From: Alphaproteobacteria bacterium
GTDB taxonomy: Bacteria; Pseudomonadota; Alphaproteobacteria; UBA828
Reading direction: 5' to 3'
NCBI GenBank assembly: GCA_963667785.2
Contig: CAXXMU010000002.1
Location: 896,001-960,000, forward strand
Length of the DNA: 64,000 nt
Below the pieces are notes generated by a model. It had not been told where the DNA came from and did no database searches. It saw nothing but the letters and a program-made list of their open reading frames with translations. The position numbers were made by a program, and so were the translations under genes. Shown here in pieces: positions 27,483 through 62,696 of this stretch. Numbering within the stretch: the first letter of the stretch is position 1; every line of letters starts with the position of its first letter.

Positions 27483-27502
27483 GGTCGCTGCCCTCCCCCG
27501 CC

Positions 27503-29090: not shown

Positions 29091-30395
29091 TCACGCGGCG
29101 AGGAAGCGGTTCCACTCCTTGATGAAGAGCGTGATGTTGCGCGGCCAGATCATCCAGTAGGCGATGTTCGACTGGCGCCGGAGCTTCGGCCCGGTGTCGC
29201 GCCCGCGGCCCTCGTACCACTTCAGCCACGAATCCTCGGACATGTAGTTGCGCGCGGTGTCGGGGCAAGGCGAGTAGTAGCCCTGCTCGGCGTCCGCCGC
29301 GCCGCGCCAGCCTTCGAGGCACCAGTCCATGTAGGCCATGGCGACCTCCGGCTGTTCCGCCTCGCTGGAGAGGCACATGCCGTAGTACCAGGCGCCAGTG
29401 CCCTCCCACACGTCGACGTACCAGCACGGGATGCCGCGCTTCCTCACGTCCTCGATGACCGGGTTCCAGCAGTCGATGCCCCACACCTCCTCGGAGGCGA
29501 GCAGGTTCACCGCCTCGCCGTAGTTGGTCCAGAGCGCGCGGAAGACGCCGTCCTGCTTGGCGCCGATCAGGAAGTCGATGACGTTCTTGAGCTCGTCCGG
29601 CTCGAGATCGCCATAGCCCACCGTCACCGGGTCCATCTTGCGGTTCTTCACGAGGTAGCTCGCGCAGCGAGGCGGCCCGATCAGGTCCTCGTTCTGGATC
29701 GAGACCTTGCCGCGCACGTCCACGTCGCGCCACTGGCCCTCGTAGAGCACGCCGAGGGTGTCCGGCGTGTTCCGGTCCGCCTGCGTGTCGGCGAACTTGT
29801 GGGGCAGGATGCCCAGCGCATCCATGTTGTAAATCTGCGGCAGCATCCCGAACGAGGTGCGGCTGTCATCCCAGTAGACCATCGCCACCGGCCAGCCGCT
29901 GGTGTGGTCGGCGCCGACATGGGCCGGGTCGGTGAAGAGCGTGTCGGCGAACTCCCAGTTGGTGATCTTCTCGGCCGGGATTGGCGCGATCGTCCCCGCC
30001 TCGCGCAGCGCAGGCACGCGGAAGGCGTTGGTCTCGATCATCGAGAAGGTCTCGTAGCCGCCGGTGATCCACTTCTGGACCGAATCGGCGAGGCTCGCGA
30101 CCTGGCCCGTGACCTGCAGGCCGCCGCTCATCTCCTCGAACTGCTTGAAGAAGCGCTCCTGCGCGGAGACGCCGGTGCCGATGAGCTGCATCGGCTCGTC
30201 CTGGGTGATGCCGGCGACCCGGTCGGAGAACGCGGCCTCGGCCTGGCTCGCACCCAGGCCGGCCGCCGCAACCGCGGCCGTAGCCCCCGCCGCCGCCATG
30301 AACTCGCGCCGGTCGAGCCATGCCGCCGTACGCGAGCGTTCCTCGGCCTTGTCGCAGAACTGCTCGTGTCTCTTGTCTAGGTGTCCGTCGTCCAT
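29091..30395 (-). CDS. PotD/PotF-like ABC substrate-binding protein with Tat signal (orphan paralog 1)
   Basis: LDRREFM Tat motif; NLLASEEVW, AMAYMDWCL, QGYYSP; clear paralog of 39732-41090. RBS GGGAGG. Confidence 0.85.
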   Translation of the reverse strand: MDDGHLDKRHEQFCDKAEERSRTAAWLDRREFMAAAGATAAVAAAGLGASQAEAAFSDRVAGITQDEPMQLIGTGVSAQERFFKQFEEMSGGLQVTGQVASLADSVQKWITGGYETFSMIETNAFRVPALREAGTIAPIPAEKITNWEFADTLFTDPAHVGADHTSGWPVAMVYWDDSRTSFGMLPQIYNMDALGILPHKFADTQADRNTPDTLGVLYEGQWRDVDVRGKVSIQNEDLIGPPRCASYLVKNRKMDPVTVGYGDLEPDELKNVIDFLIGAKQDGVFRALWTNYGEAVNLLASEEVWGIDCWNPVIEDVRKRGIPCWYVDVWEGTGAWYYGMCLSSEAEQPEVAMAYMDWCLEGWRGAADAEQGYYSPCPDTARNYMSEDSWLKWYEGRGRDTGPKLRRQSNIAYWMIWPRNITLFIKEWNRFLAA

Positions 30396-30458: not shown

Positions 30459-31217
30459 CTATTCGGCGGCAGCCCTGCCGGCCGGAGCCTCCGTGCCGAA
30501 CTGCTGCAACATCCCGGTAAAGGCCTTCTGCTCCGGGAACCTGTAGGTCTTCCACTTGCTTGTCTTGCGGCCGATCTCGACGATGCTCTCGGCCATCTTG
30601 GTGGCGCACACCACCCCGTCGAGCACCGGAATGCCGAGCTCGGCCTCCAGCCCGTCGGCGAACTCGGCGAAGCCGGCGCAGCCGAGGCAGATCGCCTCGG
30701 CATCGTCCTCGTCGCGGGCGCGGTAGCATTCCTGACGCAGCTTCTCGAGCGAGCCCTCGTAGTCCCGCTCCACGTCGAGCACATAGACCGGCGAGGTGCG
30801 CACGCTCACCCTGTGGCTGAGCCCGTAGCCGGCCACCATGTCCACCACCGGCACCCGGAAGCGCGGGATGATGGTGACGATCGCCACGCGGGCGGCGAGC
30901 TGGCACGCCATGTAGAGCGACGCTTCCGCGATCCCGATCACCGGCTTGTCGGTCATCTCGCGCGCGGCGTGCAGGCCGGGGTCGCCGTAGCAGGCGATGA
31001 TGTAGGCGTCGAAGCCCTGCTGGTCGCCCTTGCGGATCTCGTTCAGGATGCCGGGCACGCACAGGTACTCGTCGTAGAAGGATTCGATCGAGGCCGGCGC
31101 GTAGTCGGGCGTCACCGCCGCGACCTCGGTTCCCTCCCGCGCGACCGAGCGCCCCGCCACCGCGTCGGCGTCCGTCATGTCCTGCGACGAGTTGGGGTTG
31201 ATGATCATGATCTTCAT
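30459..31217 (-). CDS. Asp/Glu/hydantoin racemase (HyuE/allantoin racemase-like)
   Basis: IINPNSS, IACYGDPG and ICLGCAG (two catalytic Cys), PVLDGV. Start MKIMII at 31217 after GGGAGG. Confidence 0.92.
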   Translation of the reverse strand: MKIMIINPNSSQDMTDADAVAGRSVAREGTEVAAVTPDYAPASIESFYDEYLCVPGILNEIRKGDQQGFDAYIIACYGDPGLHAAREMTDKPVIGIAEASLYMACQLAARVAIVTIIPRFRVPVVDMVAGYGLSHRVSVRTSPVYVLDVERDYEGSLEKLRQECYRARDEDDAEAICLGCAGFAEFADGLEAELGIPVLDGVVCATKMAESIVEIGRKTSKWKTYRFPEQKAFTGMLQQFGTEAPAGRAAAE

Positions 31218-31365
31218 GGTGACCGCCTCCCTGTCGCAGCCGGGACCGCACGCGTCCCATGCTGCCTGATCCCTGAGCGAAGCGTACAACCGCGCGCGCG
31301 CCCGAGTCCACAATCGCGCCGCCCGAGACTCGCGCCGTCCGCGCCGCGGGTCCGCGCGCTCCCGC

Positions 31366-32511
31366 TCAGTAGCCGCACCAGCGGCGGGCGAGGATTTCGT
31401 AGACCTCCGCCGCCTGCTCGATGTGAGCCACCGGGCAGTACTCGTCCGTCTGGTGCGCCATGTGCATCTCGCCGGGGCCCAGGATGACGGTCGGCGGCCG
31501 CCCGTAGGCGGGGCTCAGCGCGGACGCATCGGTGAAGTAGGGAGCGCCGCGCGGCTCGATCGGCTCGCCGAGGATCGGCTCCATCACCGCGTAGATCTCC
31601 TGAATCCACGGGTGGGTGTGCGGCGTGTGCACGCCGCCGCAGTCGACGATGCGGGCAATCCTGTTCTCGTCGCCCAGATACCCCTCCAGCCCGGAGAGGA
31701 TCTTCGCGTGGTCCTGCTCGGGCAGAGTCCTGATGTCGACGGTGAACTCGGCGTGGTCCGGCACCGAGTTGAGGTTGAGGCCACCCTGCATGGTGCCGAC
31801 GTTGAGGGTCGAGCGGCCGAGCAGCTCGTGGGGCATCACGTTGAAATCGAACTCCTCGAGCCTGGTCACCGAGCGCGCCGCCTTGTAGAGCGCGTTGTCG
31901 CCGTGCTCCGGCATCGAGCCGTGGGAGGTGATGCCCTCGGTCTCCACCTTGAGCCAGAGCGCCCCCTTGTGGCCGAGAATCGGGTAGTTGGAGGTGGGCT
32001 CGGCGATGACGATGGCGCCGGCCTCGCCGAGCGCACCGATCTCGCCCAGATGGAAGGAGCCTTCGCAGCCCGTCTCCTCGCCGGCGCAGATCGCCAGCAC
32101 GATGTCAGCCGTCCCGCGCTTCCGTTCCTGCGCGAGCTTCAGGGCGACGTGGACGAAGGACGAGATTCCGGCCTTCATGTCGGTGGTGCCGCGGCCGAAG
32201 AGCTTGCCGTCCACGATCTCGGCGCCGAAGGGGTCGACCGACCATTCCTTGGCGCCGAGCGGCACCACGTCGATATGCCCGCCGAAGCAGAGCGGCTTCT
32301 TGCCGTCGCTGCCGTTGCCGCCCTCGCCGCGCAGCACCGCCACGAGGCTCGTCCGCTCCGGCGCGAACTCGTAGTAGGAGACCTCGAGCCCCGCCGCGCT
32401 CAGCATGTCGCCGAGATAGTGGGCGCACTCGACTTCGCGGCCGGGGGGATTGCGGGTGTCCATGCGGACGATGTCCCTGGTGATCTCCAGCGCGGACGGT
32501 ATGGGCGGCAT
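31366..32511 (-). CDS. M20 family metallopeptidase/deacylase (ArgE/DapE-like)
   Basis: GHIDVVP, GRGTTDMKAG, GEETG, IAEPT, HGSMPE, AHQTDE. Start MPPIPS at 32511. Confidence 0.92.
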   Translation of the reverse strand: MPPIPSALEITRDIVRMDTRNPPGREVECAHYLGDMLSAAGLEVSYYEFAPERTSLVAVLRGEGGNGSDGKKPLCFGGHIDVVPLGAKEWSVDPFGAEIVDGKLFGRGTTDMKAGISSFVHVALKLAQERKRGTADIVLAICAGEETGCEGSFHLGEIGALGEAGAIVIAEPTSNYPILGHKGALWLKVETEGITSHGSMPEHGDNALYKAARSVTRLEEFDFNVMPHELLGRSTLNVGTMQGGLNLNSVPDHAEFTVDIRTLPEQDHAKILSGLEGYLGDENRIARIVDCGGVHTPHTHPWIQEIYAVMEPILGEPIEPRGAPYFTDASALSPAYGRPPTVILGPGEMHMAHQTDEYCPVAHIEQAAEVYEILARRWCGY

Positions 32512-32705
32512 GGACTGGGTTCCTTCTCCCCGGCGGCACGCCGCCAGTATGGCCAGAGCGCCGCCGAGGGTCCAGATCGAGCGGGGCGCGCCCTGTGCCC
32601 GGAACCGACGCCGCACCTGAACCGCGGCGCCGCGTCTGTGCTAGGTTGCGCCCGGTTCAACCGGGGCCCGGCGCCGTCGCGGGCCGAAGGGGCGAGGAGC
32701 GGACC

Positions 32706-33701
32706 ATGGCGCGAATCGTGCGATTCCATGAGACCGGCGGGCCCGAGGTGCTGCGCCTCGACGAGGTGCCGGAGATGGACCCGGGACCCGGCGAGGTCCG
32801 GATCCGGATCGAGGCGATCGGGCTGAACCGGGCGGAGGTCATGCTCCGCGAGGGTATCTACCACGAGCGCCCGGTCTTTCCCTCGCGCATCGGCTACGAG
32901 GCCGCCGGCGTGGTGGAAGCCGTCGGCGACGGGGTGACCAACGTGAGCGAAGGCGAGCGCATCGCCACGGTCCCCTCCTTCGCGCTCTCGCAGACCCGGC
33001 AGGGGGTCTACGGCGAGAGCGCCACCGTGCCGGCGGAGATCGCGGCGCCCTACCCGGCGGCGCTGACGCCGGCCCAGGGGGCCGCGCTCTGGATGGCCTA
33101 TCTCACGGCCTACGGCGCGCTCGTCCGCTACGGCGCCCTCGGCCCCGGCGACGCCGCGATCGTCACCGCCGCGAGCAGCAGCGTCGGCATCGCCGCGATC
33201 CAGATCGCGAGGGAGCGCGGCGCCACCGTGATCGCGACCACACGGACCGCGGCGAAGAAGGATGCGCTCCTCGGCTTCGGCGCCGATCACGTCGTGGCGA
33301 CTGAGGAGGAGGACCTGCCGGCGCGGGTCATGGAGATCACCGGCGGCGCCGGCGCCCGCGTGGTCTTCGATCCGATCGCGGGGCCGCTGCTGACGACGCT
33401 CTGCGGCGCCTGCGCGCCTTACGGGACGATCTACGAGTACGGCGCGCTGCATCCCGGCGAGACCGTCTATCCCCTCATGCCGATGCTGGCGAAGTCGCTC
33501 ACCATCACGGGCTATCAGGTGCTCGACTTCGTGCGCGACGAGGCGCGCTTCGAGGCGGGGCGGGACTACATCTTCGCGGGCCTCGCGAGCGGCGCGCTCT
33601 CGCCCGTGATCGACGGGGAGTTTCCACTGGAGCAGATCGTGGACGCGCACCGCCACATGGAATCCAACACCCAGTGCGGCAAGATCGTGGTCACGGTGTG
33701 A
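32706..33701 (+). CDS. MDR-superfamily NAD(P)H quinone oxidoreductase-like protein
   Basis: GGPEVL, IGLNRAE, GYEAAG, TAASSSVG, GKIVV; no Zn-binding Cys. Start MARIVRF at 32706. Confidence 0.9.
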   Translation: MARIVRFHETGGPEVLRLDEVPEMDPGPGEVRIRIEAIGLNRAEVMLREGIYHERPVFPSRIGYEAAGVVEAVGDGVTNVSEGERIATVPSFALSQTRQGVYGESATVPAEIAAPYPAALTPAQGAALWMAYLTAYGALVRYGALGPGDAAIVTAASSSVGIAAIQIARERGATVIATTRTAAKKDALLGFGADHVVATEEEDLPARVMEITGGAGARVVFDPIAGPLLTTLCGACAPYGTIYEYGALHPGETVYPLMPMLAKSLTITGYQVLDFVRDEARFEAGRDYIFAGLASGALSPVIDGEFPLEQIVDAHRHMESNTQCGKIVVTV

Positions 33702-33792: not shown

Positions 33793-35553
33793 ATGGCAAG
33801 CGGCACGAACGGACGCGAAGGCAGCGGATTCGAGACCGACGTGGTGACCCGCGAGATCGTGCGCGGCAAGCTGCTGGCGGTGGCCGACGAGATGGGCGTG
33901 GTGCTCGCGCGGAGCAGCATGAGCCCGGTCATCTACGAGGTGCTCGATTTCGCCTGCGGCTTCTGCGATGCGGACGGCGAGCTGGTCTCCCAGACCAACG
34001 GCATCACCGTCTTCACCGGGACCTTCTCGCTCCAGATCAACATCATCAAGGAGAAGTTCGGCGATCGCATCCGGCCCGGCGACATCTACATGCTCAACGA
34101 CCCCTACCACGGCGGCACCCACTACAACGACGTGGGCGTGATCAAGCCGGTGTTCGTGGACGGCGAGCTGTTCGCCTTCGCCATCTCGATCTCGCACTGG
34201 ACCGACATCGGCGGCAAGGCGCCGGGGTCGCTGCCGGCGGACGCCACCGAGGTGTTCCAGGAGGGCATCTGCTTCCCCGGCATCCACGTCTACAGGGAAG
34301 GCGAGCGCCAGGACGCCATCTTCGAGATGATCGCCGCCAACGTGCGCCTGCCGAAGATGGCGCTGGGCGATCTCAACGCGGCGCTGGCTTCCGTTCGCAT
34401 CGCCGAGAATCGCTGTCTCGAGCTCTGCGGGAAGTACGGCAAGCGCGCGGTCTCGGAGACCTTCCGCCACATCCTCGAGACCAGCGAGCGGGTGAGCCGC
34501 GAGGCTGTCGCCGCGCTGCCGGACGGCACCTACGAGGCCGAGGACTGGATCGACGGCGACGGCATCACCGAGGAGCGCTTCCGCACGAAGGTGGCGGTGA
34601 CCATCGACGGCGACAACATCACCGTCGACTATTCGGGCTCCTGCGAGCAGCTCCAGGGGCCGGTCAACTGCTCGCGCTCGGCGCTCGTCTCGGCGGTGAA
34701 GACCGTCTTCAAGGCGATCGTCGATCCCCAGTCGCCGTCCAACGAGGGCTGGTTCCGGCCGCTCAACGTGGCGGCGCCCGACGGCACGGTCTTCACGGCG
34801 ACCAAGCCCGCGCCGGTCGGCTGGTACTACGAGGGCACCGGGCAGGCCTCGGAGCTGGCGTGGAAGGCGCTGGCCCCGATCGCGCCCAAGCGGGTCAGCA
34901 TGGGCAGCGCCAACAGCCTGTGCGTGACCGTGCTCGGCGGCCATGACCGCGCCAAGGGCGAGCCCTGGGTGATGATCGAGCCGAGCATGGTCGGCTGGGG
35001 CGCCACGGACGAGCGCGATGGCAACTGCGTCACCAGCGCCATCACCAACGGCGACACCTTCAACTACTCCATCGAGCTGCTGGAGGCGAAGTTCCCGGTG
35101 CGGGTCAATCAGTATGCGCTCAACACGCCGGGCGGCGTCGGCGCCGGCCGCCATCGGGGCGGCTACGGCTCGATCCGCGAATACGAGATCCTGACCGACG
35201 ACGCGGTGCTTTCCGCCAGCTACGGCCGCTCGATCGAGAGGCCCTGGGCGCGCGAGGGCGGCGACGAGGGCTCGGTCAACTACTTCGAGCTGCACGTCGG
35301 CAACGACGCCCGCCGCGCCGCGCGGGCGCCGACCACGATCATGAAGCGGGGCGACATCATCCGCATGTTCACCGGCGGCGGCGGCGGCTACGGCGATCCC
35401 TTCGAGCGGCCCGCCGAGGAGGTTCTCGCCGAGGTGCGCGCGGACTACATCTCCGCCGAGCGCGCGCGCGAGGAGTACGGCGTCGTCATCGCGGCGGACG
35501 GGCGCGCGGTGGACGAAGAGGCGACCGCCACGCTCCGCGCCCGGGCCGCCTGA
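33793..35553 (+). CDS. Hydantoinase B/oxoprolinase family (ATP-dependent lactam hydrolase, B subunit)
   Basis: SPVIYEVLDF, NDPYHGGTH, HWTDIGG..PGS, GAGRHRGG, GGGGGYGDP.ER. Confidence 0.93.
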   Translation: MASGTNGREGSGFETDVVTREIVRGKLLAVADEMGVVLARSSMSPVIYEVLDFACGFCDADGELVSQTNGITVFTGTFSLQINIIKEKFGDRIRPGDIYMLNDPYHGGTHYNDVGVIKPVFVDGELFAFAISISHWTDIGGKAPGSLPADATEVFQEGICFPGIHVYREGERQDAIFEMIAANVRLPKMALGDLNAALASVRIAENRCLELCGKYGKRAVSETFRHILETSERVSREAVAALPDGTYEAEDWIDGDGITEERFRTKVAVTIDGDNITVDYSGSCEQLQGPVNCSRSALVSAVKTVFKAIVDPQSPSNEGWFRPLNVAAPDGTVFTATKPAPVGWYYEGTGQASELAWKALAPIAPKRVSMGSANSLCVTVLGGHDRAKGEPWVMIEPSMVGWGATDERDGNCVTSAITNGDTFNYSIELLEAKFPVRVNQYALNTPGGVGAGRHRGGYGSIREYEILTDDAVLSASYGRSIERPWAREGGDEGSVNYFELHVGNDARRAARAPTTIMKRGDIIRMFTGGGGGYGDPFERPAEEVLAEVRADYISAERAREEYGVVIAADGRAVDEEATATLRARAA

Positions 35554-35567: not shown

Positions 35568-37613
35568 ATGGGCCGTCTCGCGTCCGATATCGGTGGCACC
35601 TTCACCGATCTCGTCTACTTCGACGACGCGCAGCAGAGCCTGCGCACCGCGAAGTCCCTCACCACGCCCGGCGACCTGACCCAAGGCGTCATCGACACCG
35701 TCGAGCTCTCGGGCCTCGCGCCGGCGGAGGTGGACTTCTTCGTCCACGGCGGGACCACGGTGATCAACGCCATCACCGAGCGCAAGGGGGCCAGGACCGC
35801 GCTCGTCACCACCGCGGGTTTCCGCGACGTGCTCGAGATCCAGCGCGGCAACCGGCCGGACCTCTACAACCTGCGCTTCGAGAAGGAGCGCCCCTTCGTG
35901 CCCCGCCTGCTCCGCTTCGAGGTGCGCGAGCGGGTGGATGCCACGGGCGCGGTTCTGAGGCCGCTGGAGAAGGCGGACCTCGACCACGTCGTAGAGCGCT
36001 GCCGGGAGGAAGGGGTCGAGGCGATCGCGATCCAGTTCCTCCACAGCTACGTCGCACCCCGCCACGAGGCCGAGACCGCGGCCTATCTCAGGGAGCGGCT
36101 CGACGGCGTCTCGATCACCGCCTCGCACGAGATCACCCGCGAGTGGCGCGAGTACGAGCGCGCCAACACCGCCGTGCTCAACGCCTACGTGCAGCCCATC
36201 GTGCAGAGCTACTTCGGGCGGCTGGAGGAGACGCTGGGCGGCGCCGACATCCGCTGCGCCTACGCCGCCATGCAGTCCAACGGCGGCACGACCAGCTTCT
36301 CCTGGGCCAAGGAGCACCCCATCACGCTCATGGAATCGGGGCCGGCGGCGGGCTGCAACGGCGCCGCCATCGTCGGCGACCTGTGCGAGGAGCCGCGGGT
36401 GATCTATCTCGACATCGGCGGCACCACGGCCAAGTGCACCACCATCGAGGACGGCGCGCCCAAGGTCACGACCGAGTACCGGCTGGAGTACAGCCGCACC
36501 CGGTTCGGCTATCCGCTGCGCGTGCCGGTGGTGGACATCGTCGAGATCGGAGCCGGCGGCGGCTCCATCGCCTGGCTCGACAAGGCGGGGCTGCTCAAGG
36601 TCGGGCCGGTCTCCGCCGGCGCCGATCCGGGGCCCGCGTGCTACGGCCGGGGCGGCACGGAGCCCACGGTGACGGACGCGAAGCTCATCACCGGCGTCAT
36701 CAATCCCACCAACTTCGCCGGCGGGCAGTTCGACCTCGACGAGGGCAAGGCGCGTGCCGCGATGGAGAAGATTGCGAAGGGACTCGGCACGGACGCCGTG
36801 GAGGCGGCGGTCGCCGTCATCCGCACGGTGGAAGCCAACATGATCAACGCGCTGAAGCTGGTCTCCATCCAGCGCGGCCACGACCCACGCGACTTCGCGC
36901 TGGTGGTGGGCGGCGGCGGCGGCCCCATGCACGGCGCCCCGCTCGGCCGCGAGCTCGGCGTGAAGGAGATCATCGTGCCGCTCTATCCCGGCCTCTTCTC
37001 CGCCTGGGGGATGCTGGCCACCGAGCCCCGCCGCGACTTCATGCAGACCGTGTTGCGCCGCGACGAGGAGGTGGAGGCCGGCGACGTGCGCGGGGTCTTC
37101 GCCGGCCTCAAGGAGGAGGCGGAGCGCTACTTCCGCACCGACGCCCACATGGGGCAGGCGGAGATCGCCTACGAAGGCCGCATCGACCTGCGCTACCTTG
37201 GGCAGGAGCACTCTGTGACCGTGCTCGTGGACATCGAGGCCGCCGAGGTCTCGTCCATCCTCGCGGCCTTCCACGATGCGCACGAGAAGACCTACACCTT
37301 CCGCCTCGACGACACGCCGGTCGAGTTCGTGACCTACCGGCTGACCGCGTCAGCCAAAGTCCCGCGGCCGGAGATGACGAGGCTGGCCTCCGACGGCCGC
37401 TCGCTCGAGGCCGCGGCGAGGCCCGCGCGCCTCGCCGACTTCGCCGAAGACGGCCGCCACGAGGCCGCCGTCTACGAGCGCGACCGGCTGCCGCCCGGCG
37501 CCCGGCTCGAAGGGCCGCTGATCGTGGAGGAGGCGACCGCCACCACGCTCGTCCATCCGGGCCAGACTCTCCGGGTCGACGACTACGGCTTCCTGAGAAT
37601 CACCGGCGCCTGA
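35568..37613 (+). CDS. Hydantoinase A/oxoprolinase family (ATP-binding A subunit)
   Basis: DIGGTFTD, HGGTTVINA, EYERANT, SGPAAG, DIGGTT, GAGGGSIA, SAGADPGPACY, RYLGQ. Confidence 0.94.
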   Translation: MGRLASDIGGTFTDLVYFDDAQQSLRTAKSLTTPGDLTQGVIDTVELSGLAPAEVDFFVHGGTTVINAITERKGARTALVTTAGFRDVLEIQRGNRPDLYNLRFEKERPFVPRLLRFEVRERVDATGAVLRPLEKADLDHVVERCREEGVEAIAIQFLHSYVAPRHEAETAAYLRERLDGVSITASHEITREWREYERANTAVLNAYVQPIVQSYFGRLEETLGGADIRCAYAAMQSNGGTTSFSWAKEHPITLMESGPAAGCNGAAIVGDLCEEPRVIYLDIGGTTAKCTTIEDGAPKVTTEYRLEYSRTRFGYPLRVPVVDIVEIGAGGGSIAWLDKAGLLKVGPVSAGADPGPACYGRGGTEPTVTDAKLITGVINPTNFAGGQFDLDEGKARAAMEKIAKGLGTDAVEAAVAVIRTVEANMINALKLVSIQRGHDPRDFALVVGGGGGPMHGAPLGRELGVKEIIVPLYPGLFSAWGMLATEPRRDFMQTVLRRDEEVEAGDVRGVFAGLKEEAERYFRTDAHMGQAEIAYEGRIDLRYLGQEHSVTVLVDIEAAEVSSILAAFHDAHEKTYTFRLDDTPVEFVTYRLTASAKVPRPEMTRLASDGRSLEAAARPARLADFAEDGRHEAAVYERDRLPPGARLEGPLIVEEATATTLVHPGQTLRVDDYGFLRITGA

Positions 37614-37690
37614 GCGCCCGCGCCGGCGGGACGGGCGGCGCTCGTGTCCCGATCGAGACGTTCGACCGCAGTGACGAGGTGCTCCCTGCA

Positions 37691-37785
37691 CGTCATGGCC
37701 GGGCTTGTCCCGGCCATCCACGTGTTTGCGTGGCTTTCGACAGGTCTGGCTGAGCGAGATGCCCGGAACAAGTCCGGGCATGACG
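37691..37785. repeat. Palindromic intergenic repeat (REP/RIME-like), copy 2
   Basis: CGTCATGGCCGGGCTTGTCCCGGCCATCCACG ... GATGCCCGGAACAAGTCCGGGCATGACG. Confidence 0.88.
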
Positions 37786-37816
37786 ATGAAGTTGGATGGT
37801 TCGTGCAGGGCCGAGA

Positions 37817-37990
37817 CTCCCCCTCCTCACCCCGGCCCTCTCCTCCCCCTTCCATGTTCCCTCAGTCGCCGGGCGCTCGCTCCGCGAGCTTGGCTACCGC
37901 GCCTTGCGGCGCGAGGGGGAGGAGAGGGAGAACGAGTCGCCGCCTGCGTTCCCCCTCCGCCTTTGGGGGAGGGGGACAGGGGGAGGTGGG
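37817..37990. repeat. CCCTCTCC...GGAGAGGG-type composite palindromic element
   Basis: Perfect 15-bp inverted repeat 37836-37850/37914-37928 enclosing two small hairpins, followed by a second hairpin TCCCCCTCC...GGAGGGGGA (37950-37976). Confidence 0.75.
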
Positions 37991-38032
37991 AGTCGTTCGA
38001 GCCGCTGTGACCCCGTAAGGTCGGATGGTGAC

Positions 38033-39628
38033 CTACACCGCGTCGGGACGGCGGGCGAGCGCGACGACGCAGCCCGTGGAGAGGAGCTGACCCGCGGTGA
38101 CGGCCGCGTTGGTGAGCGCCGTCGCCGTCACGCGTGTCGCATCGACCACGCCTGCCTCCCGCCAGGGACGGAAGCCGCCCGTGCGCGCGTCGAAGCCGAT
38201 CTCCGTGCCCGCGCCCTTCAGCGCTTCGAGGGCGAGCGAGGGCTCGCAGCCCGCTGCGTCGGTGATGCGGCGGAACGGCATGCCGAGCGCGCGGGCGAAT
38301 GCGCGGCGCTCGGGCTCTCCCGCCCCGTCCGCACCATCCTCGAGGGCGAAGGCGGCGCGCGCGAGCGCCACGCCGCCGCCCGGCACCACACCGTCGGCCG
38401 CCGCGGCGCGCGCGGTGTTCAGCGCGTTCTCGCAAGCCTTGTAGCGCGCCTTCCAGGCGCTCTCGGTGACACCGCCGACGCGGATGTTGGCAACGCCCGA
38501 GACCAGCCGCGCGAGGCGGGCCTCGTACTTGCCCCGGTCGTAGCTCTTCCGTTCGTGCTCGATGGCGTCACGAATCTGCTCGGCACGCCTTTCAACCGCG
38601 TGCCGTTCGCCGCTGCCGCCGAAGATCGTGGTGGAGACCCCGTCCACGACCGCCCGCCTGGCGGAGCCGAGCGCGACGGCGTCGATCTTCTCCGGGATGA
38701 GGCCCGTGTCCTCGCCGACCATGCGCCCGCCCGTGAGCACCGCCACGTCGTCGGTGGCGGCGTGGCGATAGATGCCCGATTCCGGCCCCTTCGCCGCTGC
38801 GCAGCGGACCGTGCCCTCGCGATGGTTGGTGAGCAGCGCCGCCAGCGCCTGGCCGGAGACGTCCTGGGCCAGCACCAGCAGGCTGCGTCCGCCCGCCCGC
38901 GCCGCCTCCAGCGCCGGCACCACCTGGGCCGTCTCGGTCAGCTCGCCCTGGCACATGAGGAGGTGCGGCTTGTCCAGCGCCACCTCGGTCTCGCCGGCCT
39001 TGAGCAGGAAGTTGCGCGAGAGCAGGCCGTGATCGAAGGCCATGCCGCTCATGTAGTCGATCGTCGTGTCCACGCCCTGATGGTAGGAGACGCTGATCAC
39101 GCCCTCGGGCCCGAGACGCTCCACCCCCTCGGCCACGAGGCCCGCGATCTCGTCGTCGCCGTCGGCGGCAATGCCGGCGAGCTGCGCGAGCATCGCGCGG
39201 TCCGCGACCGGGGCGCTCTGCCGCGTGAGCGCGGCCAGCGCCTCCTGCGTGAGCCCCTCGAAGCGACGCCGCACCGTGGGGGGATCGATCCCCGCCGCCA
39301 CCAGCCGCAGCCCGGCCTCGGCGAAGGCGCCGGCCAGCAGCGCCGTGGTGGTCGAGCCGTCGCCGACGGCATCGCGGGTCTTCTTGATGCAGGCCTTGAT
39401 CAGCTCGGTGCCGAGGGTCGCGAAGCGGTCGTCGTCCTCCAGGTCCCTGATCGCGGTGAAGCCGTCCCGGGTCATCTCGGGAAAGTCGTCCGCGCGCTCC
39501 AGCACCACGCGACCGCCGTGCGGGCCGAGGGTGAGGCCCGCAAGCCATGCGGTGCGGGCGAACCCCGCCATCAACGCCTCGCGGGCGTCGGCTCCGGTCT
39601 TGATGGACTTGGGCCGCTCAAGCGCCAT
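38033..39628 (-). CDS. Divergent GroEL/Cpn60-family chaperonin, no adjacent groES
   Basis: TLGPHG, TRDG, VGDGSTTT, GMAFDHG, LTGG, RLARL.SGVA.IRVGG.TE, GVVPGGG, AGVVD; full length (531 aa) but lacking the GGM tail. Confidence 0.92.
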   Translation of the reverse strand: MALERPKSIKTGADAREALMAGFARTAWLAGLTLGPHGGRVVLERADDFPEMTRDGFTAIRDLEDDDRFATLGTELIKACIKKTRDAVGDGSTTTALLAGAFAEAGLRLVAAGIDPPTVRRRFEGLTQEALAALTRQSAPVADRAMLAQLAGIAADGDDEIAGLVAEGVERLGPEGVISVSYHQGVDTTIDYMSGMAFDHGLLSRNFLLKAGETEVALDKPHLLMCQGELTETAQVVPALEAARAGGRSLLVLAQDVSGQALAALLTNHREGTVRCAAAKGPESGIYRHAATDDVAVLTGGRMVGEDTGLIPEKIDAVALGSARRAVVDGVSTTIFGGSGERHAVERRAEQIRDAIEHERKSYDRGKYEARLARLVSGVANIRVGGVTESAWKARYKACENALNTARAAAADGVVPGGGVALARAAFALEDGADGAGEPERRAFARALGMPFRRITDAAGCEPSLALEALKGAGTEIGFDARTGGFRPWREAGVVDATRVTATALTNAAVTAGQLLSTGCVVALARRPDAV

Positions 39629-39634
39629 GGGACG

Positions 39635-39662
39635 ATCATCCGCGCCAGCGAGCGGCGGTCAA
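39635..39662 (-). promoter_or_regulatory. Putative sigma70-type promoter giving a leaderless mRNA for the GroEL-like gene
   Basis: Minus strand TTGACC-N16-GATGAT-N6-ATG(39628); no Shine-Dalgarno upstream of the ATG. Confidence 0.5.
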
Positions 39663-39731
39663 CGGCGACGGCGGCGGCGGCGGCGCGACCGATGGTCCCG
39701 GCCGCGCCGCGCCTTGTCGAACGGAAGCGGA

Positions 39732-41090
39732 TCAGGCCGCGCTGAAGCGGTTCCACTCCTTGATGTAGCTGGTCACGTGCGTGGGCCACACCATCCAGAA
39801 CGCGATGTTGGACTGGCGCCTGGTCTTCGGGCCGGTATCGCGGTCCTTGCCCATGTACCAGCGGCGGTAGTCCTCCACAGTCAGGAAGTTGAGCACCGGG
39901 TCGGGGCAGGGCGAGTAGTAGCCCTGCGGCGCGACCGCCGAGCCCCACCAGCCGTCGAGGCACCAGTCCATGTAGGCCATGGCGACCTCGGGCTCGGGCG
40001 CCTCGCTCGAGAGACACATGGTGTGGACCCAGGCGGCGGTGCCTTCGAAGACGTCGACGTACCAGCACGGGATGCCGCGCTTCTTCACGTCCTCGACCAC
40101 CGGGTTCCAGCAGTCCATGCCCCAGACCTCCTCGGAGGCGAGCAGGTTCACGGCCTCGCCGTAGTTGTTCCAGATGAGGCGGAACACGCCGTCGTTCTTG
40201 GCGGCGATCAGGTAGTCCACCACACCCTTCACCTCGTCGGGCTCCATGTCGGAGTTGCCGACCTTGGGCGGGTCCATGATCCCGTTCTTCCAGAGGAAGC
40301 TGTAGGCACGCGGCGGCCCCATCAGCTCGTCGTTCTGGATCGAGGTCTTGCCGGTCGCGTCCACGTCGCGCCACTTGCCGGTGTAGAGCAGCCCGAGCGA
40401 ATCGGGGATCGCGAAGTCCGGCTGGGTGGGCGCGAACTTGTGCGGCAGCACGCCGAGCGCGTCCATGTTGTAGAACTGCGGCACGCCGTAGAAGGAGTCC
40501 TTGTTCTCGTCCCAGTAGACGATGTTGGAGGGCCACCCGGTCACATCGTCGGCGCCGATATGGCCCGGCTGGGTGTAGAGCGAATCGGCGAACTCCCAGT
40601 TGGTGATCTTCTCGGCCGGGATCGGCACGATCACCTCGGCCTCGCGCAGCGCCGGCTGGCGGTAGGCGTTGGTCTCGATCATCGAGTAGGTGCTGTTGCC
40701 GCCGGTGATGAACTTGGTGATCATCTCGCTCAGACCGGCCACCGTCCCGGTCACGTCGAGGCCGGTATCCTCCTTGAACCGGTTGAAGAAGCGCTCCTGC
40801 ACCGAGACGCCGAGACCGATGGTCTGCATCGGGTCGTCCTGGGTGATGCCGGCCACGCGCTCCGCAAGGCCGGCGCGCGCTGCGCCGGTGCCGAGCATGG
40901 TGCCGGCGGCGGCGGCCGTCACGCCGGCCGCGGCGAGGAAGGTGCGACGGTCGATTCCTCCGCCCTCCTGCTCCTCCGCCTCGGCGTCGCGGAAGCGCTT
41001 GATCGCCTTCTCCTCGGCGGCCATGGCGGTGTGAAGGTCCATCCTGTCGGACAGATGCTCGTACTTCTTCTCGAGATGTTTGCTGTCCAT
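39732..41090 (-). CDS. PotD/PotF-like ABC substrate-binding protein with Tat signal (paralog 2, in the ABC operon)
   Basis: IDRRTFL Tat motif; NLLASEEVW, QGYYSPCPD; RBS GGGGAGGAG; directly downstream of PotC/PotB/PotA-like genes. Confidence 0.88.
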   Translation of the reverse strand: MDSKHLEKKYEHLSDRMDLHTAMAAEEKAIKRFRDAEAEEQEGGGIDRRTFLAAAGVTAAAAGTMLGTGAARAGLAERVAGITQDDPMQTIGLGVSVQERFFNRFKEDTGLDVTGTVAGLSEMITKFITGGNSTYSMIETNAYRQPALREAEVIVPIPAEKITNWEFADSLYTQPGHIGADDVTGWPSNIVYWDENKDSFYGVPQFYNMDALGVLPHKFAPTQPDFAIPDSLGLLYTGKWRDVDATGKTSIQNDELMGPPRAYSFLWKNGIMDPPKVGNSDMEPDEVKGVVDYLIAAKNDGVFRLIWNNYGEAVNLLASEEVWGMDCWNPVVEDVKKRGIPCWYVDVFEGTAAWVHTMCLSSEAPEPEVAMAYMDWCLDGWWGSAVAPQGYYSPCPDPVLNFLTVEDYRRWYMGKDRDTGPKTRRQSNIAFWMVWPTHVTSYIKEWNRFSAA

Positions 41091-41154: not shown

Positions 41155-42036
41155 CTAAACCTGATGCTCCTCCTGGCCGGTGAAACGCGGCCGGTAACGG
41201 CTCGCGGTCATCAGGTAGCCGAAGATTCCGATCACCGCGAACGAGATGAGCGTGATGATGACGCCGACGGCGAAGATGCGCGGCGTGATGCGGATCGTGG
41301 TCGCGCCCAGCACGTCCAGGGGCAGCGTGTTCTGCGATCCGGCCACGAGCACCGTGCGGGCGAACTCGTCGAAGGACAGCGTGAAGCCGAAGAGCGCGGA
41401 CGCCATGATCCCCGGCTTCATGATCGGCAGCGTGATGTGCCAGAAGGTGCGCCAGCTATTGGCGCCGAGGCACATCGCCGCCTCCTCCGTCGAGCGGTCG
41501 AAGCGGTTGAACACCGTCAGCATCACGATGAAGCAGAACGGGAAGGTCCAGAGGATGTGGACCGGCAGCGTGGTGCCCAGCCAGTGCTTGTCGATGCCGA
41601 TGCCCTGCCAGAACAGCGCGTGGCCCAGGCCCACCGTGACGCCGGGGATCATGATGCCGACCAGGTAGAGGTAGAAGATCGGCCCCGCGCCCAGGAAGCG
41701 CGCGCGCATCGCCTGCGCCGCCATGGTGGCGAGCACCGTCGAGATGCACATGACGAGAAGCGCCAGCACCAGCGAGCGCAGGCCGGCATTGCCGAAGTCG
41801 CCGACGTACTCGCCGATGTCCCGCGCCGTGCCGGACGGGTTGAAGAGCCGCTCGTACCAGAAAATGCTCGTCCCCTGCATGGGGAAGGTCGGCCCGCCGT
41901 CCTCGCCCTGGAAGGAGAGGATCACCATGACGATGAAGGGCCCGTAGAGCATCAGTACGAAGAGCACCACGTAGACCGCGAGCACGATCTTGACCCAGCC
42001 GAACTTGGCGACGTGATAGCTCGTCGGCTCCGGCAT
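41155..42036 (-). CDS. Polyamine-type ABC permease (PotC-like)
   Basis: EEAAMCLGA, FTLSFDEF, NTLP. Confidence 0.92.
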   Translation of the reverse strand: MPEPTSYHVAKFGWVKIVLAVYVVLFVLMLYGPFIVMVILSFQGEDGGPTFPMQGTSIFWYERLFNPSGTARDIGEYVGDFGNAGLRSLVLALLVMCISTVLATMAAQAMRARFLGAGPIFYLYLVGIMIPGVTVGLGHALFWQGIGIDKHWLGTTLPVHILWTFPFCFIVMLTVFNRFDRSTEEAAMCLGANSWRTFWHITLPIMKPGIMASALFGFTLSFDEFARTVLVAGSQNTLPLDVLGATTIRITPRIFAVGVIITLISFAVIGIFGYLMTASRYRPRFTGQEEHQV

Positions 42037-42039: not shown

Positions 42040-42945
42040 TCAGAGCTCCCGCCGCAGATTGACGAACTGGAAGATCAGCACGATCACCGGGATCGAGACC
42101 AGCACCATGACCACCGCCACGGCCGATGCCGCGGGCCACTGCAGGAGGCCCTGCTGCTGGATCAGCACGTTGGCCAGCATGGTCGTCTTGCCGCCGCCGA
42201 TGAACTTCTGGATCGCGAACTCGCCCATCATCACGACGAACACGAAGAGGATGCCGGTGGCGAGCCCCGGCTTGGTCAGCGGCACGATGATCTTCCAGAA
42301 GGTGGTCCAGGCCGAGGCGCCGAGGTCGCGCGCCGCCTCGATCACCTGGCGGTCGATCTTGGCCATGGAGAAGTAGATCGGGCCGATCATGAAGACCGAC
42401 CAGATGATCGCCATGGAGAACACCATGCTGGGCTCGCTGTAGAGCAGGATCTCAGCGGGCTCGTCGATGATGCCGATCCCCATCAGGATCTGGTTGATCA
42501 GCCCCTTGCGCCCGAGCAGCGGCAGCCACGCCACCATGCGGATCAGCGCGCTGGTCCAGAACGGCACGATGCAGAGAAGCAGGATGTAGAGCTTGAGCCG
42601 CTCGCTCTTCACGAAGAAGCAGACGTAGTAGGCCACCGGATAGCAGAGCAGCACCATCAGCGGCAGCACGATGATGGCGATGAGGAAGGTGAAGCCGAGG
42701 GTCTGCAGGTAGGTCGCGGTGGTGAAGAACTCGATGTAGTTGTCGAGCACGAAGCCCGGCTTCATGCCGTAGGCCCAGGGCTTGTAGAAGCTGAAGACCA
42801 CCACCGAGACCAGCGGGATGCCGCAGAAGAGCGCCATCAGGACGGTCGGCGCGGCGACCAGCAGGAGCGCCTGGCGCGCGCGCTTCCGGGTGAGCGTCAT
42901 CCCGGACGAAAGGGCCGGGACCGGCGTTTGCGCGATGTCCGTCAC
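42040..42945 (-). CDS. Polyamine-type ABC permease (PotB-like)
   Basis: CYPVAY, PFWTS.LIR..AW, IEAARDLGA, WPAASA. GTG start, exact position uncertain. Confidence 0.92.
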   Translation of the reverse strand: MTDIAQTPVPALSSGMTLTRKRARQALLLVAAPTVLMALFCGIPLVSVVVFSFYKPWAYGMKPGFVLDNYIEFFTTATYLQTLGFTFLIAIIVLPLMVLLCYPVAYYVCFFVKSERLKLYILLLCIVPFWTSALIRMVAWLPLLGRKGLINQILMGIGIIDEPAEILLYSEPSMVFSMAIIWSVFMIGPIYFSMAKIDRQVIEAARDLGASAWTTFWKIIVPLTKPGLATGILFVFVVMMGEFAIQKFIGGGKTTMLANVLIQQQGLLQWPAASAVAVVMVLVSIPVIVLIFQFVNLRREL

Positions 42946-43005: not shown

Positions 43006-44091
<1,086 letters not shown>

Positions 44092-44184
44092 CGTGCCTCC
44101 CATCGCCGCATTCCGTCCTCCTGCCGCGCACCGCCTCCCGCTGGCCGGGCTCCCGATCCCGGCAACCCCGCTCGTGCGGCCGAT

Positions 44185-44232
44185 CTCTATCGCGACATAG
44201 AGTATTACAATCACTCGGCACGTCCTTTGCAA
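44185..44232 (-). promoter_or_regulatory. Putative promoter of the PotA-like operon with an overlapping palindromic operator
   Basis: Minus strand TTGCAA-N17-TGTAAT (44232-44204); inverted repeat CTCTAT-N6-ATAGAG (44185-44202) at the predicted start site. Confidence 0.55.
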
Positions 44233-44297
44233 CAGCCCGCCTCCTCGGATCGACGAATCGGATCGCGCCCCACTCCGTCGCGCCTGCTTACTAGAAG

Positions 44298-44310
44298 ATA
44301 TATGATATAT
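44298..44310. promoter_or_regulatory. AT-rich palindrome, candidate GntR operator
   Basis: ATATAT-G-ATATAT in the divergent intergenic region of an otherwise very GC-rich sequence. Confidence 0.4.
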
Positions 44311-44612
44311 TTTATGCAGAGCCTCGGCAAGCGCGGATTTGCGCATGTCGCCCCGGGCTGTAGAAAGAGCCTGAAGGCGACCGGCACGGCCTGGGCGACG
44401 CCGCCTGGCACGGCCTCGATGTCATGGCGATGCGCCCGGCCGAGCGGCGCGACGTCCAATCCCTTCGCAGGCGGCGGCCTCAGGGTGGGCGGAGACGTCG
44501 TACACGCTGTTTAAGTGAGGCGATTACCGCTTGTTCCATCAAGGGGAAAAAGTCGAAGCCGTAGCGACGGGGCTGGCCGGGGTGGGAGATAGCGGTTTCA
44601 GGAGCACTCCAT

Positions 44613-45281
44613 ATGGAAGAAAGAATCGAACACACCACGCTCGCTGAAAAGGCTTACGAAAAGGTCCGGTCCGGACTGATCTCCGCCCGCTTCGAGCCGG
44701 GAGAGATACTGCGGATCAGGAGCCTGGCGGCCGAATACGGCATTTCGGCGACGCCGGTTCGCGAGGCACTGCAACGTCTCGTGGCCGAGAACGCTCTGGA
44801 GCTTCAGCCGAACAAGTCGTTCAAGGTTCCGGTCCTGTCGACGGCACGCTTCGAAGAGGTTCGTCGAATTCGCTGCGCTCTGGAGCCCATGGCTGCTGAA
44901 CTCGCCTGCCCCAATATTACAAAGCAGGAAATGCAGATCCTGGCGTCATTGGTCGAACAAATGGATCGGTCCATCGATAATTTGAACAGTGCGGACTACA
45001 CGATACAGAATGAGCAATTTCATTTTTTCATTTACGAAAGGGCCAATTCACCGTTGTTACTGGACATGATCCGAGACCTTTGGGTGCAGGTCGCGCCCTT
45101 CTTCAACAGACTGTTCCAGGGGTCTGACTATCTTCGCAACAGCAATTACTGGCACAAGCATATCGTCGATGCCTTGAGAAACGGGGATGTGAACGAGGTG
45201 AGCCGCGGCATCTTCAGCGACATCGAAACTGCCGGAAACGAGCTTCGACTCATATTGGAAGACTCGGAAAAAACGGACTGA
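44613..45281 (+). CDS. GntR-family (FCD) transcriptional regulator
   Basis: LAAEYGISATPVREALQRL wHTH; IRCALE, NEQFHF, H..IVDAL in the FCD domain; divergent from the ABC operon; lower GC than neighbours. Confidence 0.93.
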   Translation: MEERIEHTTLAEKAYEKVRSGLISARFEPGEILRIRSLAAEYGISATPVREALQRLVAENALELQPNKSFKVPVLSTARFEEVRRIRCALEPMAAELACPNITKQEMQILASLVEQMDRSIDNLNSADYTIQNEQFHFFIYERANSPLLLDMIRDLWVQVAPFFNRLFQGSDYLRNSNYWHKHIVDALRNGDVNEVSRGIFSDIETAGNELRLILEDSEKTD

Positions 45282-47612: not shown

Positions 47613-48368
47613 ATGAGGCTGGACGGCAAGGTGGCGATCGTCACCGGCGGCTCGCGCGGGATCGGCGCCAGCATCGCGCGACGCCTCGGCGCGGACGGTG
47701 CTGCCATCGCGGTGGTGGCGCACAGGGCACGCGAGAAGGCGGAGGCTGTGGCGGGCGAGATCGTCGCCGCCGGCGGCCGCGCGGCGCCGTTCCAGGCGGA
47801 CGTCTCGCGCGTCGCGGACTGCGAGCGGCTGGCGGCCGAGGTGGTGGCCGCCTTCGGCACCGTCGACATCCTCGTCAACAATGCCGGCGTCTACCACCCG
47901 CTTCCCATGGAGGAGACCACCGAGGCGCTCTGGGACGCGCAGATCGACATCAACCTCAAGGGCAGCTTCTTCATGGCCAAGGCGGTGGCGCCGGTGATGA
48001 AGGCCAGGGGCTCCGGCAAGATCGTCAACATCACGTCCACGCTCGGCGTCGTCGGCTCGAGCGCCGGCGCCGCCTATTGCGCGTCGAAGGGCGGCCAGAT
48101 GCTGCTCACCAAGGCGCTCGGCCTGGAGCTCGGGCCGCACGGGATCAACGTCAACGCGGTGGGGCCCGGTGCCACGAGAACCGACATGAACGCGGCGATC
48201 CGCGCCCAGCCCGGCAGGGAGGAGCGGATGGAGGCCATCGCGCCGCTGGGCCGTTACTGGATGGAGGCCGACGATGTCTCCGGCGCCGTTGCCTACCTCG
48301 TGTCGTCTGAAGCGGACGCCGTGCACGGCGCGCACCTCATGATCGACCTCGGCTGGACGGCCTGGTAG
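47613..48368 (+). CDS. Short-chain dehydrogenase/reductase (FabG-like SDR)
   Basis: TGGSRGIG, NNAG, YCASK, VGPG. Start MRLDGK at 47613. Confidence 0.92.
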   Translation: MRLDGKVAIVTGGSRGIGASIARRLGADGAAIAVVAHRAREKAEAVAGEIVAAGGRAAPFQADVSRVADCERLAAEVVAAFGTVDILVNNAGVYHPLPMEETTEALWDAQIDINLKGSFFMAKAVAPVMKARGSGKIVNITSTLGVVGSSAGAAYCASKGGQMLLTKALGLELGPHGINVNAVGPGATRTDMNAAIRAQPGREERMEAIAPLGRYWMEADDVSGAVAYLVSSEADAVHGAHLMIDLGWTAW

Positions 48369-48495
48369 CGCGCCCCGGTGGGGCCTGCGCGACTTTCACG
48401 ACCGAAGCTGACGCGACCGCGCACCCCGCGAGCACGCTGGTCAACAGGCCGGCGAACGACGACGAGAGGTGTGTGGAGCCGTTCGCGGGCAAAAG

Positions 48496-56659: not shown

Positions 56660-56663
56660 CGCC

Positions 56664-57842: not shown

Positions 57843-57933
57843 GCGCGTGTCTCCTCGCCTTCACATCACGGCAGCCGACGCACCGCGCCCGCCTCGCGGC
57901 AGGAACGGTGCGCCGGCCGGTATCGGTAGCGGC

Positions 57934-59004: not shown

Positions 59005-59099
59005 GATGCCTCCTTTCACACGTCAGCAAGAGTTCATGCGGTGCAACCTGTCATGCCGCCACCGCTCACCGTAACGCGCCGGCGGTTTCACTCCCCCTT

Positions 59100-61110: not shown

Positions 61111-62696
<1,586 letters not shown>

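Follow-up and report, generated by a model that had tools for sequence, protein, structure and literature searches.

GroELx, a divergent solo chaperonin of an alphaproteobacterial lineage, and its pairing with a Tat-exported solute-binding protein

The gene analysed here lies in a 64,000-nucleotide stretch of genome from an alphaproteobacterium of the GTDB lineage UBA828 (assembly GCA_963667785.2, contig CAXXMU010000002.1, positions 896,001 to 960,000 of the forward strand). This whole stretch is called the window, and positions given without a contig or locus name are counted from its first letter. The gene (38033..39628, minus strand) encodes a divergent solo Cpn60 protein of 531 amino acids that we call GroELx. 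Comparison of Cpn60 sequences gives good support to GroELx as the founder of a small new Cpn60 clade, apart from housekeeping GroEL and from chaperonins of the MmoG/PrmG type. Its most constant neighbour is a PotD-like solute-binding protein (SBP) exported through twin-arginine translocation (Tat), and not the hydantoinase A/B pair (HyuAB) encoded on its other side. Judged from its sequence and gene context, GroELx probably serves a single pathway of uptake and breakdown as its private chaperone. Tentatively, and with somewhat less than even confidence, we propose that it may be a slow-ATPase chaperonin dedicated to the precursor of this SBP.

The GroELx protein and its clade

The assignment of GroELx draws on its open reading frame (ORF), on Pfam and NCBIfam matches, on alignment with E. 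coli GroEL, on an AlphaFold2 (AF2) model searched with Foldseek, on a tree and on ratios of nonsynonymous to synonymous substitution (dN/dS). The ORF and its translation are intact from an ATG start. The protein matches the Pfam model Cpn60_TCP1 (PF00118) with 154.8 bits (cut-off 34.3) over residues 32-523, and phmmer aligns its residues 7-529 with residues 4-528 of E. coli GroEL (E 9.6e-102). Identity to E. coli and housekeeping GroEL is 37-38%, and the sole difference in length from GroEL is a 2-residue deletion at GroEL 431-432 (MAFFT). The AF2 model, computed from a 23-row alignment of the clade, has a mean predicted local distance difference test score (pLDDT) of 88.3, and its top Foldseek matches are all GroEL/Hsp60 chains (E 3e-50, template modelling score 0.73-0.89). 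Against the NCBIfam GroEL equivalog TIGR02348, GroELx scores 426.2 bits, below the cut-off of 582.1; it passes the subfamily models NF009487 (438 against 352) and NF000592 (420 against 397), and matches the chlamydial GroEL2/3 models weakly (118-125 bits, cut-off 600).

Residues are numbered after the E. coli groL reference, using MAFFT alignments and the phmmer alignment. The nucleotide-binding residues are retained (the GDGSTT loop, TRDG, D52, D87, G415/G416 and D495), and the catalytic D398 of GroEL aligns to N401 of GroELx, within ENALNTA. Three apical motifs are rewritten: GYLSPYF to GLLSRNF (Y199L, P202R, Y203N), TLVVN to ALLTN (V263L, V264T) and APGFG to GPESG (A278G, F281S). Further changes are R284Y, K286H, L289T and R197H, and the acidic residues of the cavity are reduced (E252Q, E255S, D359S, E363G). 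Tyr199, Tyr203 and Val264, apical residues involved in polypeptide and GroES binding, are replaced by L199, N203 and T264; F204, L237 and L259 are retained, and positions 234 and 263 are still hydrophobic. As for the ring contacts, R452 and E461 are retained, K105 is Arg, and E434, next to the 431-432 deletion, falls in a gap in one alignment out of two. The first-pass annotation of this DNA had reported by eye the Asn at position 398, the retention of GDGSTTT and TRDG and the apical rewrites; proper alignment with E. coli GroEL bears this out and does not restore an Asp at 398.

GroELx stands alone in its locus. No Cpn10 (groES) gene is present in the window; the only two in the genome each immediately precede a different Cpn60 gene. 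A scan of the window for the controlling inverted repeat of chaperone expression (CIRCE) gave 0 matches at up to 3 mismatches; the positive controls, the two genomic groES genes, were each found to be preceded by the element, with 0 and 1 mismatch, so that GroELx does not appear to be under heat-shock control. No Gly-Met tail was found at the C-terminus, which reads ...CVVALARRPDAV (also given as ...ALARRPDAV), and both groESL copies of the genome have one. The description of an intact 531-residue Cpn60 devoid of groES, CIRCE and GGM tail, made from the letters of the window, therefore stands, and the separate canonical groESL that it called for exists in the form of two CIRCE-groES-groEL operons. 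With the housekeeping GroELs (E. coli GroL and the products of these two operons) GroELx shares the three-domain fold, the nucleotide loop and R452/E461; it differs from them by the absence of groES, CIRCE and Gly-Met tail, by D398N and by the apical and cavity changes.

A word-indexed protein search returned a compact set of GroELx relatives at 44-96% identity, followed by ordinary GroELs at 34-41%. When 1.84 billion cluster representatives were searched exhaustively with HMMER, only about five clusters at 50% identity fell in the GroELx clade. In a Cpn60 tree of 63 rows (IQ-TREE, quick search), the 17 rows of the clade are monophyletic with 100% support in the SH-like approximate likelihood ratio test (SH-aLRT) on a stem of 0.83, and the genome's own groESL copies group with an ordinary GroEL from the search results. 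The deep placement of the clade is unsure because the program flagged long branches.

The tree also bears on a suggested kinship with MmoG/PrmG-type chaperonins, the specialised assembly factors of soluble di-iron monooxygenases. Two plasmid-borne, monooxygenase-linked GroELs (Aminobacter aminovorans pAA02 and a Rhodococcus aetherivorans plasmid), which from their gene neighbourhood presumably correspond to the experimentally studied MmoG/MimG, form a separate clade (98% SH-aLRT) nested among ordinary GroELs, and the kinship is not supported. These two copies, of the MmoG/PrmG/MimG type, resemble GroELx in being solo, divergent and devoid of a GGM tail, in coming last, at the 3′ end, in a catabolic operon and in being presumed to serve one pathway. 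They differ in that they form a clade of their own and retain D398 and Y199, and in that GroELx adjoins no di-iron monooxygenase gene. The reported absence of such a monooxygenase is true of the window and not of the genome: PF02332, the hydroxylase of soluble di-iron monooxygenases, has four matches there (C8:9627-10316, C6:1076257-1079375, C2:32737-33396), none of them in the window and none close to any of the four genomic Cpn60 genes. Further likenesses are found in mycobacterial Cpn60.1, chlamydial GroEL2/GroEL3 and the extra copies of rhizobia, for which the literature describes non-GGM C-termini, weaker selection and suspected narrow roles.

The residue signature is a property of the clade. 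Position 398 is Asn in 35 of 37 clade relatives (44-96% identity), the exceptions being P0042, with Thr, and P0029, which resembles the query no further than residue 399. All 37 have Ser at position 281, a non-aromatic residue at 203 (Asn, Ser, His, Gly, Leu or Asp) and Leu, Met or Val at 199. GDGSTT, D52, D87, GG and D495 are present in nearly all members; D52 is replaced in five sequences, by Asn in L055, P0037 and P0043 and by Ser in P0042 and P0126. Eighteen sites are at least 85% conserved both within the clade and within canonical GroEL and yet differ between the two; 10 of these are apical, including positions 278-289.

Selection on the gene was estimated with the NG86 method, comparing relatives with the window gene. 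For GroELx, dN/dS is 0.19-0.38 (dN 0.08-0.23, dS 0.40-0.71). Its neighbours give 0.10-0.15 (HyuA), 0.07-0.16 (HyuB), 0.05-0.17 (the upstream SBP, SBP2) and 0.015-0.21 (permeases). In the same genomes, the housekeeping groEL gives 0.08-0.15 (dN 0.02-0.04), the second groESL copy 0.17-0.22 and the other solo Cpn60 0.20-0.29. Of the four Cpn60 copies GroELx evolves fastest: when both are compared with the same five genomes, its dN is 3-7 times the housekeeping value. Such a rate, together with a score of 426 where the NCBIfam GroEL equivalog asks for 582, is what a decaying groEL duplicate might show. Against decay, however, none of 20 full-length genomic copies contains a stop codon, dN/dS lies far below 1, relatives of 44-96% identity share the fixed signature residues and the fold is predicted with confidence (pLDDT 88.3), which makes this explanation extremely improbable. 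GroELx is conserved and under purifying, though relaxed, selection; it is not a decaying duplicate. Relaxed selection, named beforehand as a possible sign of decay, is thus real relative to housekeeping groEL, but it has not ceased to be purifying, and the view of GroELx as a divergent, specialised Cpn60 is upheld as far as conservation and association of genes go; the D398N and apical changes extend to the whole clade.

Distribution of GroELx and of the binding protein

The 49 genomes of the order were surveyed for GroELx. Of the 20 that share the genus of the window genome, 17 have the gene, and so does a single genome from a second genus, G008; G047 carries it twice (74% and 57% identity). 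Outside the family, about 397 genomes of the class gave no GroELx, and a phylum sample of 400 genomes gave none either. A metagenome scan gave no match when queried with protein P0033 and two loci, L055 and L056, when queried with alignment A1. Two divergent GroELx lineages bear the source labels of a Gammaproteobacteria and a Hyphomicrobiales metagenome-assembled genome.

In the window, genes for the ATPase and two permeases of an ATP-binding cassette (ABC) importer, for SBP2 and for GroELx follow each other on the minus strand and converge with hyuB-hyuA, beyond which lies an operon for a racemase, an M20 deacylase, SBP1 and coxMSL. Pfam and NCBIfam matches of the neighbours agree with the initial placement of GroELx between an ABC binding-protein gene and a convergent hydantoinase A/B pair. 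In the core genus, eight loci with flanks show the window arrangement wherever the flank reaches; hyuBA is 25 bp to 5.7 kb from GroELx in seven of them, and the eighth (L011) ends just past GroELx. The main locus of G047 also has the window arrangement, with GroELx intact. In G044 and G037, the order ABC-SBP2-GroELx is followed by an acyl-CoA synthetase gene, and over 1 Mb separates GroELx from the HyuA orthologue (86-87%). G008 likewise has ABC-SBP2-GroELx, with the HyuA orthologue (84%) about 0.56 Mb away. The second GroELx of G047 (57%) forms an orphan pair with an SBP gene (75%), without permeases. An SBP gene is therefore found directly upstream of GroELx, on the same strand, in four lineages: the core genus, G044/G037, G008 and the G047 orphan pair. 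Of the neighbourhood whose conservation was to be scored, the SBP gene is the most constant part; hyuAB is remote in G044, G037 and G008. As a separate observation, the orphan pair (locus L048 6145-8868) is convergent with a gene for a 615-residue protein resembling the N,N-dimethylformamidase beta subunit, itself preceded by two small ORFs without Pfam match.

The same association appears in the phylogenetic profile. When the 43 remaining genomes of the family were compared, SBP-family members were found in 17 of 18 GroELx carriers and in none of 25 non-carriers; the carrier in which none was found, G032, is a genome 62% complete. In G033 the SBP1 type was the only one found, and its GroELx is on contigs of at most 2.6 kb. 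The three members of the genus that lack GroELx also lack the transporter and have only a HyuA paralogue (72%). The SBP family is as rare as the GroELx clade, with 36 matches in the word-indexed search. In three more divergent lineages, whose GroELx proteins are 53, 48 and 44% identical, an SBP-family protein and a GroELx protein come from contigs of identical size (14835 and 10564 nt for the P0040 cluster, 7394 for P0042, 7211 for P0043), and because of these equal sizes the two were taken to be on the same contig. Pairwise identities of paired SBP and GroELx proteins are correlated with r = 0.96 (36 pairs from 9 lineages, including the G047 paralogous pair and the P0042/P0043 sister pair).

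SBP2 (39732..41090, minus strand, 452 amino acids; a weak match to Pfam SBP_bac_8, 41.8 bits) has a Tat signal with a DRRTFL motif, an ARA-G cleavage motif and four invariant Cys. Its twin arginine (RR) is preceded by a conserved extension of 46 residues that starts MDSKH. An MD-x-x-H start with 28-47 residues before RR occurs in 14 of the 14 SBP-family members listed at 54% identity or more. Among five relatives at about 40% identity, RR is at residues 9-13 in four and has no match in the fifth, and none has the MD-x-x-H start. In SBP1, which has no adjoining chaperonin, about 20 residues of the extension are absent. A profile search of solved structures with SBP2 gave one weak SBP match (E 2e-4), and AF2 modelling from a 10-row alignment reached a pLDDT of 28.7.

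Candidate clients and possible mechanism

We favour the reading in which GroELx would be a working, specialised group-I paralogue, expressed from a transporter/catabolic operon outside the heat-shock regulon and inherited as a pair with a rare Tat-exported PotD-like SBP. The SBP precursor, of about 50 kDa, would have to fold in the cytoplasm ahead of Tat export, and GroELx may bind it and then fold or hold it. The GroEL cage accommodates proteins up to about 60 kDa, a limit within which the SBP precursor fits and HyuA (681 amino acids) and HyuB (586 amino acids) do not. Because Asn replaces the catalytic D398 (with D52N in some members) and the ATP-binding residues are retained, slow ATP turnover is predicted. 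GroELx would then cycle slowly, as a long-dwell folding or holding cage, and be less a fast GroES-driven foldase. The precedent is GroEL D398A, which is reported to show normal ATP binding, an ATPase at 3% of wild type and a substrate that is still encapsulated and folded (PMC3326522). Binding of the SBP, assembly into rings, independence from GroES and a role of the N-terminal extension are features that we infer from sequence.

A more detailed version, which we regard as doubtful, would have a hydrolysis-impaired Cpn60 ring recognise the MD-x-x-H...RR extension, fold or proofread the SBPs and release them to the Tat translocase. Known private Tat chaperones, the redox enzyme maturation proteins (REMPs) TorD, DmsD and NapD, are encoded beside their Tat substrate and bind its precursor or signal region until it is folded. 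GroELx shares with them the position of its gene beside that of a Tat substrate (an SBP with DRRTFL, upstream in four lineages); REMPs differ entirely in fold and size, their clients are cofactor-bearing redox enzymes, and the analogy is functional only. Prediction of a complex between full GroELx and SBP residues 1-100 (with alignments, no controls) gave a score of 0.00, which is evidence neither way. Were this version true, a group-I chaperonin would for the first time be seen in a REMP-like function, and GroELx would be the first private chaperone known for the SBP of an ABC importer.

Several observations weigh against a chaperonin dedicated to the SBP. At the main locus of G047, SBP2 (locus L047 8397-9020) is internally deleted: only residues 45-150 and 312-392 align, in an ORF of 207 amino acids. 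In the metagenomic locus L055 (GC content 59%), the order is ATPase-permease-permease-GroELx, convergent with hyuA-hyuB, and no SBP gene is present between permease and GroELx or elsewhere on the 9.3-kb contig; the neighbours there are 78-87% identical to those of the window but GroELx just 59%. The other metagenomic locus, L056, reads hyuB-hyuA-GroELx on one strand, with a gap of 12 bp. Relatives are not independent of one another, and common descent, or the joint transfer of one module, accounts for part of both the profile and the correlation. In the three divergent lineages, equal size is the one thing that puts SBP and GroELx on a common contig. D398N is not peculiar to the GroELx clade: of the 126 other representatives of divergent full-length Cpn60s, 114 retain D398 and 7 have Asn in its place. 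The D398A precedent concerns Ala whereas GroELx has Asn, so the parallel between the two may be loose. Finally, the apical groove of GroELx is hydrophobic at six of eight classical positions (L199, F204, V234, L237, L259, L266), which makes polypeptide binding plausible and leaves room for ordinary binding of GroES and substrate.

The two metagenomic loci speak rather for HyuAB as the client, GroELx being in that case a dedicated assembly chaperonin comparable to MmoG for the methane monooxygenase hydroxylase. The hyu genes are convergent with and adjacent to GroELx in the core genus and G047 as well as in the separate lineage L055, and in L056 they are co-directional with GroELx although the HyuA there, 39% identical to that of the window, is a different paralogue. 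(The L056 hyuA, at 451-2512, is split into overlapping ORFs of 453 and 270 amino acids, by a frameshift or an assembly error.) On the other hand, orthologous hyuBA clusters occur without either GroELx or the SBP in G007 (with M20; HyuA 82%) and in G022 (with quinone oxidoreductase, M20 and racemase; HyuA 81%), and the HyuA orthologue is distant from GroELx in G044, G037 and G008. The family genomes hold 12-38 HyuA copies each, with or without GroELx, so that chance adjacency to GroELx is not rare and the HyuA family at large can do without it. Both HyuA and HyuB also exceed the usual cage size. Given the clusters of G007 and G022 and the co-occurrence of GroELx with the SBP, GroELx tracks the SBP/transporter module and HyuAB does not require GroELx; a HyuAB-dedicated chaperonin seems quite unlikely to us. 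Among the three candidate clients put forward at first (Tat-exported SBPs, HyuAB and the CoxMSL enzyme), the Tat-exported SBP gains from its position in four lineages and its profile (17/18 against 0/25), and the clusters of G007 and G022 speak against an obligatory link with HyuAB.

GroELx might also have no private client and serve as an accessory general chaperonin, co-regulated with the transporter/catabolic operon so as to add folding capacity on induction of the pathway, and kept linked to it by co-transfer of the module. The second solo Cpn60 and the second groESL of the genome evolve at similarly relaxed rates (dN/dS 0.17-0.29), the GroELx groove is still largely hydrophobic, and one study reports that, where a bacterium has several chaperonins, a single copy with a Gly-Met tail is kept under stronger selection (PMC11978752). 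A generalist role is nevertheless hard to reconcile with the replacements, fixed throughout the clade, of the catalytic Asp and the apical residues 278-289, which indicate an altered mechanism and not a matter of dosage, and neither the orphan SBP-GroELx pair nor the strict co-occurrence with one rare SBP family would be expected. We consider it unlikely, though deserving of some weight.

More remote is the idea that GroELx is a chaperone no longer and instead serves the ABC importer or Tat targeting as an ATP-binding scaffold or regulator. The loss of the catalytic Asp, joined by D52N in the L055 lineage, with retention of the nucleotide-binding loop, would suit such a role, as would the constant position of GroELx at the 3′ end of the transporter operon within the family. 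Yet the three-domain architecture is whole, conservation extends across all domains including the substrate-binding helices, and GroEL D398A still folds substrates; a scaffold appears very unlikely.

The question is of some general interest because extra GroEL copies are common and their clients are almost never known, the MmoG type being the main case of a pathway-private chaperonin. The GroELx clade offers a second, testable case with one candidate client, a 50-kDa Tat-exported SBP with an unusual conserved leader. A literature search, with most subscription journals outside its reach, brought up no publication in which a Cpn60 is tied to an ABC-importer operon, a Tat-exported SBP or a hydantoinase cluster. 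If the SBP is indeed the client, chaperonin specialisation would be tied to Tat quality control and a role would be revealed for a chaperonin with a naturally fixed D398N; GroELx could also be a co-expression partner for producing these SBPs, and possibly the pathway enzymes, in heterologous hosts.

The operon, its neighbours and the other chaperonin genes

The spacer between SBP2 and GroELx (39629..39731, minus strand, 103 nt) contains a GC hairpin without U-tract and one promoter-like match at consensus level, the single match of the promoter scan, at 9/12 only. No terminator-like site was found in it, and its RNA fold is no more stable than that of shuffled sequences (z 0.54). In contigs from RNA libraries (four runs of four studies, at least 85% identity), parts of GroELx are covered, and one contig of 827 nt bridges the 3′ end of SBP2, the spacer and the 5′ end of GroELx (39321-40155). 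As these contigs come from relatives and DNA carry-over is possible, they give a weak hint of expression.

Upstream of SBP2, still on the minus strand, are the genes of permease 2 (41155..42036, Pfam BPD_transp_1), which was found in 10 related genomic loci at 91-99% identity and in L055 at 87%, and of permease 1 (42040..42945, Pfam BPD_transp_1 and synteny). The ABC ATPase (43006..44346, minus strand; Pfam ABC_tran and TOBE_2) is an ORF of 446 amino acids where relatives have 360; as relatives align to it only from residues 70-88 (tblastn), its true start is probably near 44090. A divergent gene on the plus strand (44613..45281, Pfam GntR and FCD) encodes a regulator that is a candidate for control of the transporter-GroELx operon.

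On the other side, the stop codons of hyuA and GroELx face each other across a repeat-rich spacer of about 420 bp (37614..38032, no strand assigned) with inverted repeats of G- and C-tracts; in relatives this gap is 25 bp, about 1 kb or up to 5.7 kb. One RNA-library contig joins the ends of hyuA and GroELx through 9 other letters. The hyuB (33793-35553) and hyuA (35568-37613) genes are on the plus strand, convergent with GroELx, and were assigned with Pfam to an enzyme of the ATP-dependent hydantoinase/oxoprolinase family. By NCBIfam, HyuAB is caprolactamase-like, below cut-off, and its nearest solved relatives are N-methylhydantoinase and 6yra. The HyuA family is greatly expanded, with 33-34 hydantoinase/oxoprolinase A matches in the 4.1-Mb genome (for instance G000:C2:58944-60980 and C8:126519-128561), and the 12-38 copies per family genome compare with 4-11 in the sister family. 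HyuA copy number was considered as a correlate of GroELx and ruled out, since genera without GroELx have 12-30 copies.

Beyond hyuB, the following genes were assigned by Pfam and NCBIfam: a quinone oxidoreductase on the plus strand (32595-33701) and, on the minus strand, an M20 deacylase (31366-32616), an Asp/Glu/hydantoin racemase (30459-31313), SBP1, a 65% paralogue of SBP2 with a Tat signal (29091-30395), and a molybdenum hydroxylase of coxL/S/M type (25086-28905). Further away, a stretch of low GC content (48001-50000, 0.52 against about 0.69) holds an ORF (48496-50133, minus strand) for a 545-residue ATPase of AAA_15/AAA_21/SMC_N type, possibly a horizontally acquired defence-type gene. 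A block for purine and urate catabolism (54789-63710) comprises an amidohydrolase, an OHCU decarboxylase, a membrane urate oxidase, a Bmp-type ABC importer and XdhC.

The genome has four Cpn60 genes in all: those of the two CIRCE-groES-groEL operons, a solo copy at C2:291k and GroELx at C2:934k. The other solo copy (G000:C2:291022-292521; locus L003 1423-3090, minus strand) is also divergent, with 555 amino acids and no GGM tail; it retains D398 and carries Y203A. It is conserved in four relatives, with dN/dS of 0.20-0.29 in the three where this could be computed. Its place is the 3′ end of another catabolic operon, whose upstream genes, on its own strand, encode a class-IV aminotransferase and a TauD-family dioxygenase.

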